Notes under the pieces: model-generated | What the model saw: the letters and a program-made list of their open reading frames with translations, nothing else | Databases searched by the model: none | Told to the model about the DNA's origin: nothing | Program-made: the position numbers and the translations under genes | Origin: Leptolyngbyaceae cyanobacterium | GTDB lineage: Bacteria > Cyanobacteriota > Cyanobacteriia > Phormidesmidales > Phormidesmidaceae | Direction of reading: 5' to 3' | Length of the DNA stretch: 24,000 nt | Assembly: GCA_050043105.1 (NCBI GenBank) | Contig: JBHJIV010000157.1 | Span: 1,470 to 25,469, forward strand | Shown: in pieces, positions 2,129 through 23,677 of the stretch | How positions within the stretch are numbered: position 1 is the stretch's first letter | How the letters are laid out: each line of letters starts with the position of its first letter

Positions 2129-2509
2129 TTAAAAACTGGTGCGTAATGAAGAGAAAATTTGATCAGATATCGTCATCGGATCGTAAGGTTTAGTAATAAT
2201 CGATGAGACATCTAACTTGCCAAAGAATTCTTTCTCGTGAGACTGAGCTTTGGCTGTCAAGATAATGACCGGGATCTTTTGTGTTTTGGGGTTATTTTTT
2301 AAACGTTTCAAAATTGTTAGCCCATCCATACCCGGCATCATCATATCTAACAAGATGACGTCGAGTGTCTCTGACTGTGCGATCTCAATTCCCTCAGGCC
2401 CATTACTGGCTTTTAACACATCCCAGTGACCCGTAATCTCTAAGCAAAGCTGTGTTGCTTCTCGAATGTCGGCATCATCGTCAATAATGAGAATACGCCT
2501 AGTCGTCAT
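2129..2509 (-). CDS. rfpC: RfpC, single-domain CheY-like response regulator of the FaRLiP regulatory trio
   Basis: 126 aa from the internal ATG (complement of 2507-2509): MTTRRILIIDDDADIRE...VILLDMMMPGMDG...ILTAK, a receiver domain with all acidic-pocket residues. The longer 193-aa ORF-track version overlaps the rfpA 3' end and is rejected. Context is immediately downstream of rfpB-rfpA. Confidence 0.85.
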   Translation of the reverse strand: MTTRRILIIDDDADIREATQLCLEITGHWDVLKASNGPEGIEIAQSETLDVILLDMMMPGMDGLTILKRLKNNPKTQKIPVIILTAKAQSHEKEFFGKLDVSSIITKPYDPMTISDQIFSSLRTSF

Positions 2510-5093
2510 CGGTGGAGGTCTCCTGTTGAAAAAATGGAGCGGAAGTGTCTTCTCTAGAAACTCTGGGTAATATGGGCAGGGTAAAGTAGAAGGTACTCCC
2601 GGCCCCAACAGCGCTCTGGGCCCAAATTTTCCCCTCGTGCTTTTGCACAATGCTGCGGCAGATGGCAAGTCCCAAACCCGTTCCCCCCTGGTGACCAACG
2701 TCGGACCCATCTAGTTGCTCAAAGCGATCAAAAATAACCTCGACTTTATCTTTGGGAATTCCCTGCCCGTAATCTTTAACGGCGATTAGCAACAGTGACT
2801 CAGCAATCGCTAAACCAGCCTGTATCGCATCTCTCCCGTTATTATCTAAGCTTTTTTCGATAAATGATACATTCTTGACATGAATCTGCTGAGCATTGAC
2901 CTCAACAACGGTGCCAGCAGGAGAGAACTTGATCGCATTACTCAGTAAGTTAGTCAGAGTTTGAATGATCCTATCCGGTGCGACCCATAGCTGAACTGAA
3001 AGCGGAGAAACAATCAGTTGAATATCGTGCTTCTCGGCCATAGCCCGCATTTCATCTGCAGCTTGAGACATAATACTAGACAGATTACAGGTTCTTTTAT
3101 TAAGGTCTACCTTGCCGAGCTTAATACGCTCAACATCTAAAATATCGTTGATTAATCGTACATGTCTGTTTGTTTTTGAAAACGCGATTTCGTCCATGCG
3201 CTGGCGTTTGGCATCTGAGATATCTATTGTTTCTTGGGCCAATAGCCCCAACGCTGCTCGGATGGAGGTTAACGGCGTTCGTAATTCATGACTGACAACG
3301 GCAATAAATTCATCTTTCATCGATTCAATCACTTGCCGTTCGGTAATATCCTTAAAGATAACAACTGCACCAACAATCGTATCATTCTCATAAATCGGGG
3401 TGCTGACGTATTCTGTAGGAAATTCAAATCTCCCCAGCCGTTGAAAGATGTCACCAGCGACATGACAGGTTTGACCCTGTTTTAAGGTCTTAAAGATAGG
3501 GTTCTGTTGCCAACTGTAGGGTATTTTTTCTGACGATGCATGATTTACCAGCCTGTGCATAAATTGACCGATGAGTTTCTCTTTTGCATAACACAATATT
3601 CTTGCAGCGGCGGTGTTGACAAACTCCTTTTTACCGTCAGGATCTAGAACATAAATACCCTCACCTGCAGAATTAAGAATCAGTTCATTTTGATGACTAA
3701 GACGCTTGAGTGAATCCCGAGCCTGCTGCAGTTCTCTCAGGGTACGCTCTCGTTCTTCAATTTCTTGTTTTAGGTCTTCATTGAGCTGCTGCAGTTCGAG
3801 GGTGCGCTGTAGTACCCGCGACTCCAAGTCAGCATTTAATAATTGAACTTCTCGATATAGCTGAGTTTGATAGATAATTGAGGCAAATCGGTCGGACAGC
3901 TCATGAAAAAGACCAACTTCATGGGCTGTCCAAGGATTGGCCTGATCCTGCTTTAGCTCTCGCCAAGTTTCAAAAGATTGACGTGGGCGCTGCTGACGTG
4001 GGTCAGAGGTGTCTAGTTTGCCTGCCCAAATAGTTTCATAATCAATAGACTGACGAAACAGGCTCAGATATCCGAGAATACGATTGTGATGGGTTAGCTT
4101 AGCAATCATTACACTTCGAATACCGCCACCGATTAGGGCAGACGTCAGTGTCCATGAAAGCTGAGTCTGTTTGATATCAGACATAACCCACAGTTGACCA
4201 ACTGACTGATTAGGGGATTCAGTCTCAAGCCAGCGTTGCCAGTCTGGGAGCTGCTCTAAGATTTGCTGGTGGCGTTTAGGTAAAACAATCTTGGTTAGCT
4301 CAGGTTGAAGACCATTAAGCACGAGCTGACCCTTGGATTCTGCATCGTTTTTTGTAATATAGAGTCTGCCACCTACACTTTGTAAGTCTCTAACTGTCTG
4401 GTCAAGAGCCTTTTGCAAAGAATCTTGGGGTGTAGAATGCAGACGTGAGACAACTTGATTGATAATTGCCTCATGTCGTCCTTGTAGGCGGGTCAGGCGC
4501 AGTAGATTAGCATGGCCAATCGCCACTGCAACTTGATCGGCAATTAGCTGAACCACCTCTAATTCTTTACGACTAAACCTGCGGGGGGCACTATTGTGGG
4601 CCACTAACAGCCCCCAAAGCTGATGGCGGTGAAAAATGGGTACAGCCAAAGACGCTTGTACTCCCATTGCCATTAAATAGTCAACATGACAGGGGTCAAC
4701 CGGACGAACCCACAGGTTAGTTTTTAGAGGCTCCTGAGTTGTTTTATTAATCAGTGGACTGATGCCGATTTCTCGTTTTTTAACGTTAACAATCGTGCGC
4801 TGTCGGGCCTTGATAAACATCTCACGAGCGTGCTCTGGAATATCACCTGCTGGAAACCGATGGCCTAGTAGTGAGGGCAACCGTTCGTTTCGAATGGCCT
4901 CTGCAATCACTTCGCCACTATTGTCGTCATCAAACCGATAAACTTTGACCCGATCGGTTCCTAAGAACCCTCTCATTTCGTTGACAGTAGCGCTTAAAAT
5001 TTCAGGTAGCTCAATCGACTGACGAATGCGGTCGGTCATTCGATGCAACAGTTCCTCAGGGGTTTTAATTGCTCGAATAGATTGGAGAGTCAT
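2499..5093 (-). CDS. rfpA: RfpA, knotless phytochrome-type sensor histidine kinase (GAF-GAF-coiled coil-PAS-HisKA-HATPase)
   Basis: The GAF domain starts almost at the N-terminus, with no N-terminal PAS. It has the canonical bilin-binding motif VRPVDPCHVDYL (Cys codon at complement of 4689-4691). Downstream are a second GAF-like region, a coiled coil (LESRVLQRTLELQQLNEDLKQEIEERERTLRELQQARD), a PAS domain, the H-box VSHELRTPLTSI and the G-boxes DYGQGIP / GGTGLGLAI. I place the start at ATG 5093. The ORF-track start at 5225 is a TTG directly abutting the rfpB stop. Confidence 0.85.
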   Translation of the reverse strand: MTLQSIRAIKTPEELLHRMTDRIRQSIELPEILSATVNEMRGFLGTDRVKVYRFDDDNSGEVIAEAIRNERLPSLLGHRFPAGDIPEHAREMFIKARQRTIVNVKKREIGISPLINKTTQEPLKTNLWVRPVDPCHVDYLMAMGVQASLAVPIFHRHQLWGLLVAHNSAPRRFSRKELEVVQLIADQVAVAIGHANLLRLTRLQGRHEAIINQVVSRLHSTPQDSLQKALDQTVRDLQSVGGRLYITKNDAESKGQLVLNGLQPELTKIVLPKRHQQILEQLPDWQRWLETESPNQSVGQLWVMSDIKQTQLSWTLTSALIGGGIRSVMIAKLTHHNRILGYLSLFRQSIDYETIWAGKLDTSDPRQQRPRQSFETWRELKQDQANPWTAHEVGLFHELSDRFASIIYQTQLYREVQLLNADLESRVLQRTLELQQLNEDLKQEIEERERTLRELQQARDSLKRLSHQNELILNSAGEGIYVLDPDGKKEFVNTAAARILCYAKEKLIGQFMHRLVNHASSEKIPYSWQQNPIFKTLKQGQTCHVAGDIFQRLGRFEFPTEYVSTPIYENDTIVGAVVIFKDITERQVIESMKDEFIAVVSHELRTPLTSIRAALGLLAQETIDISDAKRQRMDEIAFSKTNRHVRLINDILDVERIKLGKVDLNKRTCNLSSIMSQAADEMRAMAEKHDIQLIVSPLSVQLWVAPDRIIQTLTNLLSNAIKFSPAGTVVEVNAQQIHVKNVSFIEKSLDNNGRDAIQAGLAIAESLLLIAVKDYGQGIPKDKVEVIFDRFEQLDGSDVGHQGGTGLGLAICRSIVQKHEGKIWAQSAVGAGSTFYFTLPILPRVSREDTSAPFFQQETSTDDD

Positions 5094-5225
5094 GAGAAAA
5101 GCAGGGGTATAACGGTTTCTAAAATTGAGCTGGTTTCTTGAGCTATGCCTGCATTGTTCAATTCTCTTTGGAAGTGCAAACGTCTCCAAGATGTAAAATA
5201 GAGGGTTGAGCCCTGGCGCGATCAA

Positions 5226-15186: not shown

Positions 15187-15514
15187 AAATCTCTTGAAGG
15201 CACGAGCCGATTTCGACTCTCACTTCTCGACTAATTAACAAGCGCCTTTCAATCACCGTTCACGAAACCAAAGATAGTTGAATTAACAGTAGGGAAACTA
15301 TAGAAACAAAAGATGGAAAACTAATGAAGATAAAAATCCCCTATAGAAAAAGTTACAGTTTAGATACAGATACGTTATTGGGTACTGTCAAGCGCCTATG
15401 TTCTCTTTAAAGGATTTAGCCTGACTAACGTATAAGAAAAGGGTATGATATCTTCAGGCTGTAGCATACAAAGCCTGAGTCAATCGATTCGATATTGATT
15501 CAAGTAAGTTGCTG

Positions 15515-15746: not shown

Positions 15747-16271
15747 ATGCATTTCCATCTCAAAAAAATCTCAATCAAGCCTATCATCTCTACGATTTTT
15801 ACACTGTTGCTCTCGTCCATTTTATGGATAACTGTTGGGGATGACGTGGCCGGAGCGGTTGAAATTAATCAGGCTACTCGTACCGTACCGCTAAATGATG
15901 CAGGCGATCAAGTCACAGTAAGTGTTAAGCAGTTTACTACGGGGCAGCGAAAGTTTAATAGCAACTGTGCCCAGTGCCACTTAGATGGAGGTACCAAAAC
16001 CAATCCTGATGTCGATCTGGGTGCCGAACGGTTGTTACTGGCAACGCCCTCACGCAATAATATTAAGAGCATGATCGAGTATCTAGAAAATCCCACGACC
16101 TATGATGGATTAACGTCCCTAGAAGAGCTACATCCCTCACTCGCTCGTTCTGATCTCTTTCCTAAAATGCGAGAGCTAACGGAGGAGGATTTAATTGCGA
16201 TTTCAAGCTACATACTAATCCAGCCAAAAATTGTCGGTGAGCAGTGGGCTGGTGGTAAACCAAACCGGTAG
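15747..16271 (+). CDS. psbV: Cytochrome c550 (PsbV) paralog, PSII lumenal extrinsic subunit
   Basis: 174 aa with a signal peptide, then TVPLNDAGDQVTVSVKQFTTGQRKFNSNCAQCHLDGGTKTNP...ATPSRNNI..MIEYLENPTTYDG...ELHPSLARSDLFPKMRELTEEDL. It is collinear with canonical PsbV, including the CxxCH heme motif and the distal His in HPSL. AGGAGA lies 9 nt upstream of the ATG. Confidence 0.85.
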   Translation: MHFHLKKISIKPIISTIFTLLLSSILWITVGDDVAGAVEINQATRTVPLNDAGDQVTVSVKQFTTGQRKFNSNCAQCHLDGGTKTNPDVDLGAERLLLATPSRNNIKSMIEYLENPTTYDGLTSLEELHPSLARSDLFPKMRELTEEDLIAISSYILIQPKIVGEQWAGGKPNR

Positions 16272-16322
16272 CTGTAGACAAGCAAAAAGCCAGATTAGAC
16301 TGGCTTTTTGCTTGTCTACAGC
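16271..16322. terminator. Bidirectional intrinsic terminator shared by convergent psbV (+) and psbO-psbF-nblA (-)
   Basis: Perfect 23-bp inverted repeat: gctgtagacaagcaaaaagccag (16271-16293), loop attaga (16294-16299), ctggctttttgcttgtctacagc (16300-16322). The core GCCAG/CTGGC stem is flanked by an A5 tract on one side and a T5 tract on the other, so it reads as a terminator on both strands. It begins at the last base of the psbV stop codon and ends 9 nt from the nblA stop. Confidence 0.8.
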
Positions 16323-16331
16323 TTGAGAGAT

Positions 16332-16499
16332 TTAAGGATTTCTGATTAAATGCTTAACCAAATTCTCTCTCATCATCATTAGCTGCATGATGTCTATGAT
16401 ATATTCTTGAGCTTGAATAACTGTCAGCCCCTTGACCTGCTCTCTTAAAATTTGTATCTCAAACTGTTGCTCTAAGGTCAAATCTCCTGGCATTCCCAT
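16332..16499 (-). CDS. nblA: NblA-family phycobilisome degradation (proteolysis adaptor) protein
   Basis: 55 aa from the ATG (complement of 16497-16499), with GGAGGAG 8 nt upstream: MGMPGDLTLEQQFEIQILREQVKGLTVIQAQEYIIDIMQLMMMRENLVKHLIRNP. It aligns along its whole length with remembered NblA/Ycf18 sequences (LS.EQQF.........QV..........F.......M..EN......R). The 93-aa ORF-track version extends into psbF in another frame and is rejected. Confidence 0.8.
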   Translation of the reverse strand: MGMPGDLTLEQQFEIQILREQVKGLTVIQAQEYIIDIMQLMMMRENLVKHLIRNP

Positions 16500-16531
16500 A
16501 ATAATTGCTCCTCCATCGATTAAATGTGGCC

Positions 16532-16666
16532 TTAGCGCTGAACAAACTGCATCGCTGCGATCGCACCTAAGAAAAATACTGTCGGAATCCCCAGAGCATG
16601 TACTGCCAGCCATCTGATAGTAAAAATAGGATACCGAATCTCCTGGTCACGGTTGATATTAGCCAT
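16532..16666 (-). CDS. psbF: Cytochrome b559 beta subunit (PsbF) paralog; small ORF not in the ORF track
   Basis: Manual base-by-base reverse-complement translation gives [44 protein letters not shown] followed by a stop (44 aa). It is near-identical in pattern to canonical PsbF (..[31 protein letters not shown]), including the heme-ligand His. AAGAGG lies about 9 nt upstream. It starts 22 nt after the psbO stop. Confidence 0.85.
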
Positions 16667-16688: not shown

Positions 16689-17513
16689 TTAAGCAACTGC
16701 TTGGTCGATCCGACCATAGAACTGACCTTGAATTCTGACATCCATCGGCTCTTTAGCACCAAAATCAGTATCAGAAGGTTGATTGCTTTCAAATAACCCA
16801 GCAATTTCTCCTGTTTTTCGATTGACTCGAGTGATTTGTAGAGAAATCTCCCCTTCACCCACCTCAAAGGACTTGCTGTTTTGACGGGAAAATTTCTCCC
16901 GATCTGCCTGAATTGGGAATCCTACTGCTGCATCATATCCTGATGATAATCCCCGTCCTTTTGGATCAATAAAATTGGATGTGCGATAGGGAGGTACCTG
17001 GAATGTTCCCACTAGTCGGGTTGTTGGGCTTAGCTTATTTGAGACATCTTGATTTTTAGCCACAAGTCCTTTAATCGTAAATAGCAGAGCAATCCGCTCA
17101 CCATTGGGAGGCTGTACCGTTACGGGCTGAAAGTCAAATCCCCCCTGCTCAGCAAAAGTGATGTTGCCATCAGAATCGACTTGTAAAGAACCACTTACTT
17201 GATCAAGACTAAAACTCTCGCGGGTGAGGGGTTTTGAAACTACGAAATCATTCTCCTGACTCTTGACCATAGAAGAGCCTTTTACTAGAAATGTCTCAGG
17301 TTGTAAACACAACCCATTAAGTTGATACGACTGATTAGCATCTATAGCAATTGCATCCCGACTGCTGCGTGACAGTTGAGGACAGTTATTGGCTAGACCA
17401 CTACCCTTGATGTCATCGTAGCTTAGTGAGCTAGCCTGTGGGCCGCCACTGCAGGCGGTAATTAGTCCAAAGCACAAGACTAATAAACCAGTTATTAACG
17501 TACGATATTTCAT
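16689..17513 (-). CDS. psbO: Manganese-stabilising protein PsbO paralog, PSII lumenal extrinsic subunit
   Basis: 274 aa from the ATG (complement of 17511-17513; an alternative ATG is at 17528): MKYRTLITGLLVLCFGLITACSGG...LSYDDIKGSGLANNCPQL...GLCLQPETFLVK...FQPVTVQPPNGERIALLFTIKGLVA...VPPYRTSNFIDPKGRG.SSGYD...TGEIAGLFESNQPSDTDFGAKEP.DVRIQGQFYGRI. It is collinear with cyanobacterial PsbO, including both disulfide cysteines. Confidence 0.9.
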   Translation of the reverse strand: MKYRTLITGLLVLCFGLITACSGGPQASSLSYDDIKGSGLANNCPQLSRSSRDAIAIDANQSYQLNGLCLQPETFLVKGSSMVKSQENDFVVSKPLTRESFSLDQVSGSLQVDSDGNITFAEQGGFDFQPVTVQPPNGERIALLFTIKGLVAKNQDVSNKLSPTTRLVGTFQVPPYRTSNFIDPKGRGLSSGYDAAVGFPIQADREKFSRQNSKSFEVGEGEISLQITRVNRKTGEIAGLFESNQPSDTDFGAKEPMDVRIQGQFYGRIDQAVA

Positions 17514-17659
17514 TTTTTGTTCTCTCATTAATGGCGTAGGCGCGTAACCAGACGAAAGCGCACTCGCAAATTTGTGAAAAGATGATAGTCCACACGATAA
17601 ATTCCCCCACAAAAAAATGGAGAACATATGAAGAGAGAGTTTATGTATCGCTGATTATT

Positions 17660-17695
17660 AACTTATGTAAAGCGATTTTCATATTTTCATAAGTT
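17660..17695. promoter_or_regulatory. 8-bp inverted repeat enclosing a perfect tandem 8-mer, in the psbO/apc divergent region
   Basis: aacttatg (17660-17667) and cataagtt (17688-17695). Inside is attttcat-attttcat (17675-17682 and 17683-17690). The background is AT-rich, so a chance occurrence is plausible. Confidence 0.2.
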
Positions 17696-17879
17696 CTCCA
17701 TTTTTTTTTCCTATTCTTCTTGCAAGCTTTAGTAAAACAAGTCTTCCTTACTGCTCAGGTGAGCATCTAGCTTTTTTAGCCAGATGTTTTCTAAAGAGTA
17801 AGACTCTAAATCTTGTTGGCCTGATGCAAGCGATAAATGCCTTCAATCAGCTATGTAGTCTAACGGAGAATGAATCACG

Positions 17880-22618: not shown

Positions 22619-23677
22619 ATGACAATTTCAATGGGTGCGTTAAAACCAGCTAGAAGCTGGATAGGGGGACTTGACGACTGGTTAAAACGAGACAGCTATG
22701 TGTTTGTTGGCTGGTCAGGATTACTCTTGTTTCCCTGTGCGTACTTGGCTATAGGGGCCTGGTTTACCGGCACCTCATTTGTTACATCTTGGTATACTCA
22801 TGGTCTTGTCAGCTCTTATTTAGAAGGCTGTAATGTTCTCACCACTGCTGTGTCTACCCCGGCTGAAAGCATGGGGCATTCACTTTTGTTTCTATGGGGA
22901 CCAGAGGCCGGTGGGGATTTTACCCGCTGGTGTCAGATTGGTGGGCTGTGGAATTTTACTGCTCTTCACGGTGCACTCGGGCTGATGGGCTTTATGCTGA
23001 GGCAGATTGAGCTTGCCCGGTTAGTGGGTATTCGTCCCTACAACGCTATTGCTTTTTCGGCTCCAATTGCAGTTTTTGTGGCAACGTTTTTAATCTATCC
23101 CCTGGGTCAGTCCAGCTGGTTTTTTGGGCCTAGTTTTGGAGTGGCCGCCATCTTTCGATTTCTTCTATTTTTCCAGGGATTTCATAACTACACCCTAAAT
23201 CCCTTTCACATGATGGGTGTAGCAGGGGTATTAGGCGCTGCATTGCTCTGTGCCATCCATGGAGCAACCGTACAAAATACCCTTTTCAAGGACTCGGAAG
23301 GTAAAAACACATTTAGAGGGTTCTCGACAACTCAAGCGGAGGAAACCTACTCTATGGTGACGGCTAATCGCTTTTGGTCTCAGATCTTTGGTATTGCATT
23401 TTCCAATAAGCGCTGGCTTCACTTCTTTATGCTGTTTGTGCCAGTAACGGGCTTGTGGATGAGTGCAATTGGCATGATTGGTCTGGCCTTTAATTTGCGG
23501 GCTTATGACTTTGTGAGTCAGGAAATCCGGGCAGCGGAAGACCCTGAATATGAGACGTTTTACACCAAAAATGTCTTGCTCAATGAAGGGGTACGGGCCT
23601 GGGCATCAGAGCTTGATCAACCAGCGAAAAAGTTTGTCTTTCCAGAGGAGGTGTTACCTCGTGGCTTTGCTGAATAA
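22619..23677 (+). CDS. psbD3: Photosystem II D2 protein (PsbD), far-red paralog
   Basis: 352 aa: [44 protein letters not shown]...[25 protein letters not shown]...[23 protein letters not shown]...FPEEVLPRG. Full-length and collinear with D2. AAGGAGA lies upstream. Confidence 0.95.

Follow-up and report, generated by a model that had tools for sequence, protein, structure and literature searches.

A 55-codon gene that lies inside a FaRLiP cluster in the window (the whole 24,000-nucleotide stretch of DNA analyzed here) encodes a member of the NblA family, and we put at roughly 55% the probability that it is a functional NblA adaptor gene, the last in a psbO-psbF-nblA unit, that belongs to the FaRLiP regulon. 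NblA is an adaptor that marks phycobilisomes for degradation; it is classically induced by stress, and it hands the phycobilisomes on to ClpC. The arrangement of the three genes is already in print in the form of a passing remark without follow-up: Gisriel et al. 2022 (PMC8689208) mention that the psbO1-psbF2-nblA-psbV operon of Synechococcus sp. PCC 7335 includes "an nblA paralog". What the present analysis adds to that remark is the recurrence of the gene across mostly marine clusters, the strong constraint upon it, its systematic difference from the canonical nblA genes present in those genomes, and its place in an operon with a promoter box of the cluster.

The gene content of the window is that of a FaRLiP cluster (rfpCAB, psaFLBA, chlF, psbV, nblA-psbF-psbO, apc genes, apcE2 and psbD). 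In particular, a block on the minus strand comprises an rfpC-like receiver gene, rfpA (GAF-PHY-PAS-kinase), rfpB, psaF, psaL, psaB, psaA and a gene for a divergent PsbA of 391 aa, which we take to be chlF; on the plus strand, beyond nblA-psbF-psbO, follow three allophycocyanin genes, a short two-REP apcE and psbD. The nblA gene is positioned between chlF-psaABLF-rfpBAC and apc-apcE2-psbD, and so inside the FaRLiP cluster. The original prediction had placed it within a far-red acclimation cluster, and the flanking rfp, psa, chlF, apc, apcE2 and psbD genes confirm this. (Note that the ORFs of the rfpC-like receiver, at 2129-2710, and of rfpA, at 2499-5225, overlap by ~210 nt and that the rfpA ORF starts at TTG; the overlap probably arises from the choice of start codon in the mechanical ORF list. 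The rfp genes are flanked by a trehalase-family ORF at 989-2011 that matches profile positions 187-510 only and that may be N-terminally truncated or mis-started.)

The product of the gene belongs to the NblA family. Against PF04485, the Pfam model of NblA, it scored 63.4 bits (E 2.7e-17; gathering score 25), with residues 6-54 aligned to profile positions 1-49 of 50; the protein had been predicted to align end to end with NblA, as it does, and the PF04485 score, which had been named beforehand as a possible refutation, lies above the cut-off. The product could also be matched to solved NblA chains (2q8v/2qdo, E 1.2e-7; 1ojh, E 2.8e-5; 3cs5, E 4.7e-5; residues 6-53). An AF2 monomer model with a mean pLDDT of 89.5 has a short helix from residue 9 to 21 and, beyond a loop, a long one from 27 to 53, and this predicted helix-loop-helix is the NblA topology. 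In our NblA comparison L7, E10, Q11 and N46 of the product are invariant, and F13, L25, Q29-A30-Q31, Y33, M41, M42, L47 and K49 are conserved at ≥ 90%. Bienert and colleagues are said to have found in 2006 that Leu51 and Lys53 (Anabaena numbering) near the C terminus of NblA are required for phycobiliprotein binding. By ungapped alignment, the product has L at position 51; at position 53 the window protein has R, and two orthologues, those of a TARA metagenome contig (L001) and of the metagenome-assembled genome (MAG) P01_H01_bin.21 (L004), have K. The 55-aa product is too short and too divergent for a word-indexed protein search using 5-residue words, which returned a single match, and an exhaustive HMMER search and look-ups of gene context were used instead.

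These same two orthologues served in estimating the constraint on nblA. The values of dN/dS were 0.06-0.10 at a dS of 0.27-0.70, which is constraint equal to that on the neighboring psbO and psbF, and nblA is, by this measure, under strong purifying selection. Because of these values, an open frame that arose by chance or a pseudogene in decay can be excluded. Such an origin might have been suspected from the length of only 55 codons, from the score of 33.4 bits against the NCBIfam NblA equivalog model NF045916 (cut-off 100), under which strict model the product is an NblA-family member and not an equivalog, and from a Foldseek search of the AF2 model against the PDB that returned nothing significant (best E 2.2, to Rho fragments), a two-helix hairpin being too small for that search to be informative. 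Set against the Pfam E value, the dN/dS maintained up to a dS of 0.70, and the retention of length, ribosome-binding site (RBS) and position in ~5 sublineages, the chance that the ORF is of this kind is negligible, and the conservation data already refute it. A longer version of the ORF, of 93 aa, that begins at 16613 and overlaps psbF was rejected; all of the orthologues are 55 aa long and keep the RBS, and the true start of nblA is therefore 16499.

The genes psbO, psbF and nblA are co-oriented and are separated by intergenic gaps of only 22 nt and 32 nt, the second of these running from the psbF stop codon (16532-16534) to the nblA ATG (16497-16499). The coordinates thus confirm the original description of nblA, with 32 nt between the psbF stop and its own start and with a GGAGGAG RBS. 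A motif of the (A/G)GGAG type is found at the same site in 6 of the 7 cluster nblA genes compared, with AAGAG in PCC 7335. On the other side of nblA, 8 nt past its stop codon, begins a perfect hairpin (free energy -45.6 kcal/mol, z = -10.5 on folding) that reaches into the stop codon of the opposing psbV gene and that reads as a bidirectional intrinsic terminator common to nblA and psbV. Hairpins that likewise consist of an A-tract, a GC stem and a T-tract, functionally equivalent to that of the window but different in sequence, lie 3' of nblA in L001, L004, L089 and L092. A simple consensus promoter/terminator scan, which expects a run of T after the stem, did not flag the 24-bp hairpin. From the gaps of 22 and 32 nt and the terminator hairpin that follows nblA, we infer that nblA is the last gene of a psbO-psbF-nblA unit; the tight, operon-like linkage to psbO-psbF claimed by the original prediction is borne out by these gaps, by the conserved RBS and by the terminator shared with psbV. 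Extension of the psbO ORF to an ATG at 17627, which would give a protein of 312 aa, is spurious, as homologues of 274-276 aa match a start at 17519. The spurious extension (17520-17627) overlaps the promoter box that faces psbO.

Table 1 Genes and sequence elements of the psbO-psbF-nblA region, by position in the window
Feature	Position	Strand	Basis and remarks
psbO paralogue, first gene of the unit	16689-17519	minus	PF01716, 328 bits
psbF paralogue (cytochrome b559 beta)	16532-16666	minus	PF00283, 59.8 bits; TIGR01333, 87 bits; outside any psbEFLJ operon
Shine-Dalgarno sequence GGAGGAG	16508-16514	minus	8 nt 5' of the nblA ATG; read from the sequence
nblA paralogue	16332-16499	minus	55 aa, stop codon included in the coordinates; product MGMPGDLTLEQQFEIQILREQVKGLTVIQAQEYIIDIMQLMMMRENLVKHLIRNP
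24-bp perfect hairpin	16270-16323	unstranded	A-tract/T-tract core AAAAAGCCAG...CTGGCTTTTT; between convergent nblA and psbV
psbV paralogue (cytochrome c550), convergent with nblA	15747-16271	plus	PF14495, 169.8 bits; TIGR03045, 199.9 bits (cut-off 177.75)
chlF upstream motif, full length ~62 nt, T-rich	15297-15358	minus	Conserved block in an alignment of six chlF upstream regions; nhmmer E 2.8e-15; reference copy
Box TCTTCATATGTTCTCCA (FaRLiP-type), facing psbO	17618-17634	minus	98 nt 5' of the psbO ATG; nhmmer with chlF profile
Same box, facing the divergent apc operon	17684-17700	plus	nhmmer with chlF profile, and pattern count

The psbO-psbF-nblA unit shares a putative cis-element with other operons of the cluster. 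We built an nhmmer profile solely from the conserved block upstream of chlF and then ran it on the window and on related clusters. In the window this profile, derived from chlF, found two more copies of the 3' half of the motif, one facing the apc operon and the other facing psbO. The core of the box, TCTTCATNNGTTNTYCA, occurs three times in the 24-kb window against an expectation by chance of 0.02, and its only sites are 5' of chlF (15314-15330), psbO and apc. The psbO-psbF-nblA unit is preceded by the conserved T-rich intergenic motif of FaRLiP, in the form of the box at 17618-17634. The box facing psbO is present in the same orientation in 11 of the 12 related clusters; its nhmmer score in the window is 8.0-8.4, weaker than the 13.8-15.3 obtained in the close relative L004, and in PCC 7335 there is a partial match only (3.8-5.2). 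Consistent with these findings, the box in the window independently reproduces a "short motif" reported 5' of psbO in bioRxiv 10.1101/2024.05.15.594131. The authors of that study propose, without demonstration, that the motif is a target of RfpB, and in the literature a function for the box and recognition of it by RfpB both have the standing of hypotheses; nblA goes unmentioned there and is outside the 19 core FaRLiP genes of that study. The features of a classical stress-regulated nblA locus, namely an isolated position, a separate upstream region and an NtcA site, are absent here: nblA is 32 nt from psbF, no NtcA-type site (GTAN8TAC) is found near the psbO-psbF-nblA unit, and the sole match in the window is at 23028. 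Because box sites precede chlF, apc and psbO, far-red co-regulation of nblA is, on this cis-element evidence, plausible.

The psbO-psbF-nblA arrangement recurs. Using context look-ups of PsbO homologues together with scans of genome and metagenome contigs, we found it beside a divergent far-red apc operon in the window, in L001, L004/L005/L009, L084, L089, L091, L092, L093, L094 and L095, and also in Synechococcus sp. PCC 7335 (L002/L003) and the 7335-like L097. The carriers constitute about five sublineages of related, mostly marine clusters. In 4 of 12 related clusters (those of Oscillatoria sp. CS-180, Nodosilinea sp. P-1105, Leptolyngbya sp. SIO1E4 and P01_A01_bin.114) psbO-psbF-psbV is present and nblA is missing, and tblastn at E values up to 100 detected no remnants of nblA in the psbF-psbV gaps of these four. 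Since these related clusters lack it, nblA is dispensable for FaRLiP; it is not a core FaRLiP gene and is found only with the optional psbO-psbF module of an early-branching lineage. Among the 80 NblA loci that best match the window protein (one genome per species), two are in a FaRLiP context (L009 and L084), and the others are stand-alone or 5' of cpcBA-like genes.

Several further observations were made on these loci. In the window group psbV is convergent with nblA behind the shared terminator (window 15747-16499), whereas in PCC 7335 (L002 11059-11812; 7-nt gap) and in L097 (3001-3800) psbV follows nblA in the same direction, and the module must therefore have been inverted at psbV at least once. 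On the BRYA16 metagenome contig L092 (2121-2600) one far-red allophycocyanin alpha gene is split into ORFs of 48 aa and 62 aa, which is either a frameshift or an assembly error. In many Phormidesmis-type genomes a canonical nblA lies directly 5' of, and co-oriented with, cpcB/cpcA-like genes, with nblA at about 6001 and the cpcB-like gene 0.5-0.8 kb downstream (loci L017, L018, L024, L026-L030, L032, L034, L043, L044, L048, L049, L051, L055, L073 and L080), a further instance of nblA adjoining antenna genes. Lastly, contigs with a cyanobacterial-type nblA occur in MAGs labelled Saccharimonadales, Verrucomicrobiota and Microbacteriaceae (L020, L037 and L041), and these are most likely mis-binned cyanobacterial (or cyanophage) DNA.

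Published work on far-red light bears on whether the gene is part of the regulon or is a functional paralogue that merely travels with the psbO-psbF-psbV module, is expressed constitutively or under general stress, and occupies a position in the cluster that has no regulatory meaning. We regard the latter as rather unlikely. It draws on PMC8689208, where both psbF genes of PCC 7335 are called "not modulated by FaRLiP", a statement that argues against far-red induction of nblA in that strain; on PMC9843442, from the same group, in which PsbO1, PsbV1 and PsbF2 are described as not encoded in a FaRLiP cluster; on the location of the PCC 7335 module at the edge of the cluster, next to hfq and dapF, with a partial psbO box; and on the four related clusters without nblA. 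However, the psbO-oriented box is common to chlF and apc and is kept in all but one of the 12 clusters, and in Halomicronema hongdechloris far-red light raises the levels of the additional PsbO and PsbV encoded in the cluster, along with those of other cluster proteins (PMC6416890). In the FRL-PSII of PCC 7335, PsbO1, PsbV1 and PsbF2 are the predominant isoforms (PMC9843442). The lack of an NtcA site, and a gap to psbF that leaves no room for a separate promoter, likewise speak against an nblA that is independent of the cluster. Moreover, the MAG nearest the window (PsbO 96% identical) contains at least two more canonical, stand-alone nblA genes (L067 and L070); the regions upstream of these are long, and they are more likely to be the copies regulated by stress; the number of other nblA copies in the genome, which the original prediction had put forward for counting, is thus at least two in this close relative. 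Transcripts of nblA are also reported to be up in far-red light in Chlorogloeopsis fritschii (PMC6424891) and in Synechocystis (PMC11423583).

The cluster-linked NblAs differ from their nearest non-cluster relatives at particular positions. Position 14 is Glu in 8 of 8 cluster-linked NblAs and in none of the 56 nearest non-cluster proteins (44 Lys, 11 Gln, 1 Thr), position 43 is a residue other than Val in 7 of 8 against 0 of 56 (Val43 being invariant in the latter), and Glu replaces Asp at position 45 in 7 of 8 against 2 of 56. As a family-wide signature E14 was rejected, as distant NblA subfamilies outside FaRLiP contexts have it too; it is diagnostic solely relative to the nearest paralogues. 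The window NblA is 33% identical to that of PCC 7335, 51-64% identical to those of the L089, L091 and L092 types, and 45-63% identical to its nearest canonical relatives. In a neighbor-joining tree with bootstrap the window group was recovered at 100%, and monophyly of the cluster-linked NblAs received support of only 14% and 2%, the 51 columns being too few to resolve it. The more alike two PsbOs are, the more alike are the corresponding NblAs (Spearman 0.74 over pairs that are not independent), and this correlation together with the shared residues favors common descent of the cluster-linked NblAs with the psbO-psbF module. The lineage of the window has changed further (R39Q and Q40L): its group has Gln39-Leu40, where 54 of the nearest 56 non-cluster proteins have Arg39 and all 56 have Gln40, which points to faster change in that lineage. 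The NblA of T. vulcanus also has Leu at position 40.

These substitutions raise the question of whether the main role of the cluster NblA is not to work alone but to pair with the canonical NblAs in heterodimers or to modulate them, such that a different set of phycobiliproteins is attacked and the far-red allophycocyanin paralogues, for example, are spared. The close relative has three or more nblA genes, the residues at positions 14, 43 and 45 are linked to the cluster, the window lineage has diverged further at positions 39 and 40, and a precedent exists in NblA1/NblA2 of Synechocystis (Baier et al. 2014, as cited in PMC6424891 and PMC7966870). Nevertheless, the occurrence of E14 in distant subfamilies outside any FaRLiP context, and the possibility that the substitutions are neutral drift in a fast-evolving protein of 55 aa, make such a role seem quite improbable to us. 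A related conjecture, which we hold to be doubtful if not quite so remote, is that the cluster-linked NblAs are a dedicated far-red subfamily, inherited with the module since before the split of PCC 7335 and the window, marked by E14, non-Val43 and E45 and wired to RfpABC, whose members would, by virtue of an altered surface, attack visible-light phycobilisome components and spare the far-red allophycocyanin paralogues. If true, this would amount to a switch for antenna turnover that is triggered by light color and is substrate-selective.

Comparison with known systems sets our preferred reading, that of a functional adaptor gene in the FaRLiP regulon, in context. The "nblA paralog" of PCC 7335 (PMC8689208) resembles that of the window in being directly 3' of an extra psbF and adjoining a divergent far-red apc operon, and the two proteins are of the same family and have E14 in common. 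Unlike the window protein, the PCC 7335 protein has an 18-residue C-terminal extension in addition to being only 33% identical, psbV lies 7 nt after nblA and co-directional with it rather than convergent behind a terminator, and the module is at the edge of a cluster segment beside hfq and dapF, with the psbO box partial. The canonical NblAs of known structure (Anabaena, 1OJH; T. vulcanus, 2Q8V/2QDO; S. elongatus, 3CS5) are similar to the window protein in size, Pfam family and predicted helix-loop-helix, and their LxLEQ..F / QAQ.Y / NL..L core matches it; their genes, however, stand alone and have their own stress promoters, whereas the nblA of the window is embedded in a photosystem operon. 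In C. fritschii PCC 9212, nblA1 and nblA2 (PMC6424891) have the same proposed role, the lowering of phycobiliprotein during far-red acclimation, and are induced 2-3 fold in far-red light. Those genes are outside the cluster, and the changes there are largely independent of RfpABC according to PMC6424891, whereas the nblA of the window physically belongs to an operon of the cluster and is probably transcribed with it. In Acaryochloris marina MBIC11017 an nblA similarly travels with horizontally acquired light-harvesting genes, in that case those for phycocyanin on plasmid pREB3 (PMC11633204), but it has its own promoter of the HLR1/RpaB type and is induced by high white light, not by far-red light.

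On the reading that we prefer, RfpA/B/C would, in far-red light, activate promoters with the TCTTCAT..GTTCTCCA box, that of psbO among them, and NblA would be made together with the far-red paralogues of the PSII extrinsic proteins and cytochrome b559. The NblA dimer, a helix-loop-helix, would then bind phycobiliproteins and pass them to ClpC-ClpP, such that the visible-light phycobilisome pool would fall while far-red allophycocyanin cores are installed. Each of these steps (the far-red induction of nblA, the binding of the box by RfpB, the Clp-dependent degradation and the choice of substrate) is put forward here as a proposal, and the clearing of white-light phycobilisomes by this NblA as a hypothesis. 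The placement of nblA in the cluster suggests that far-red acclimation and the breakdown of the antenna are turned on jointly. Should nblA prove to be induced by far-red light, it would exemplify the recruitment of a stress-response adaptor into a regulon that responds to light quality; otherwise the gene would be one more NblA paralogue. Far-red acclimation swaps the phycobilisome core and lowers total phycobiliprotein, and the cluster nblA, a version of which is carried by the cultured strain PCC 7335, is a genetically tractable candidate for the removal of the old antenna.
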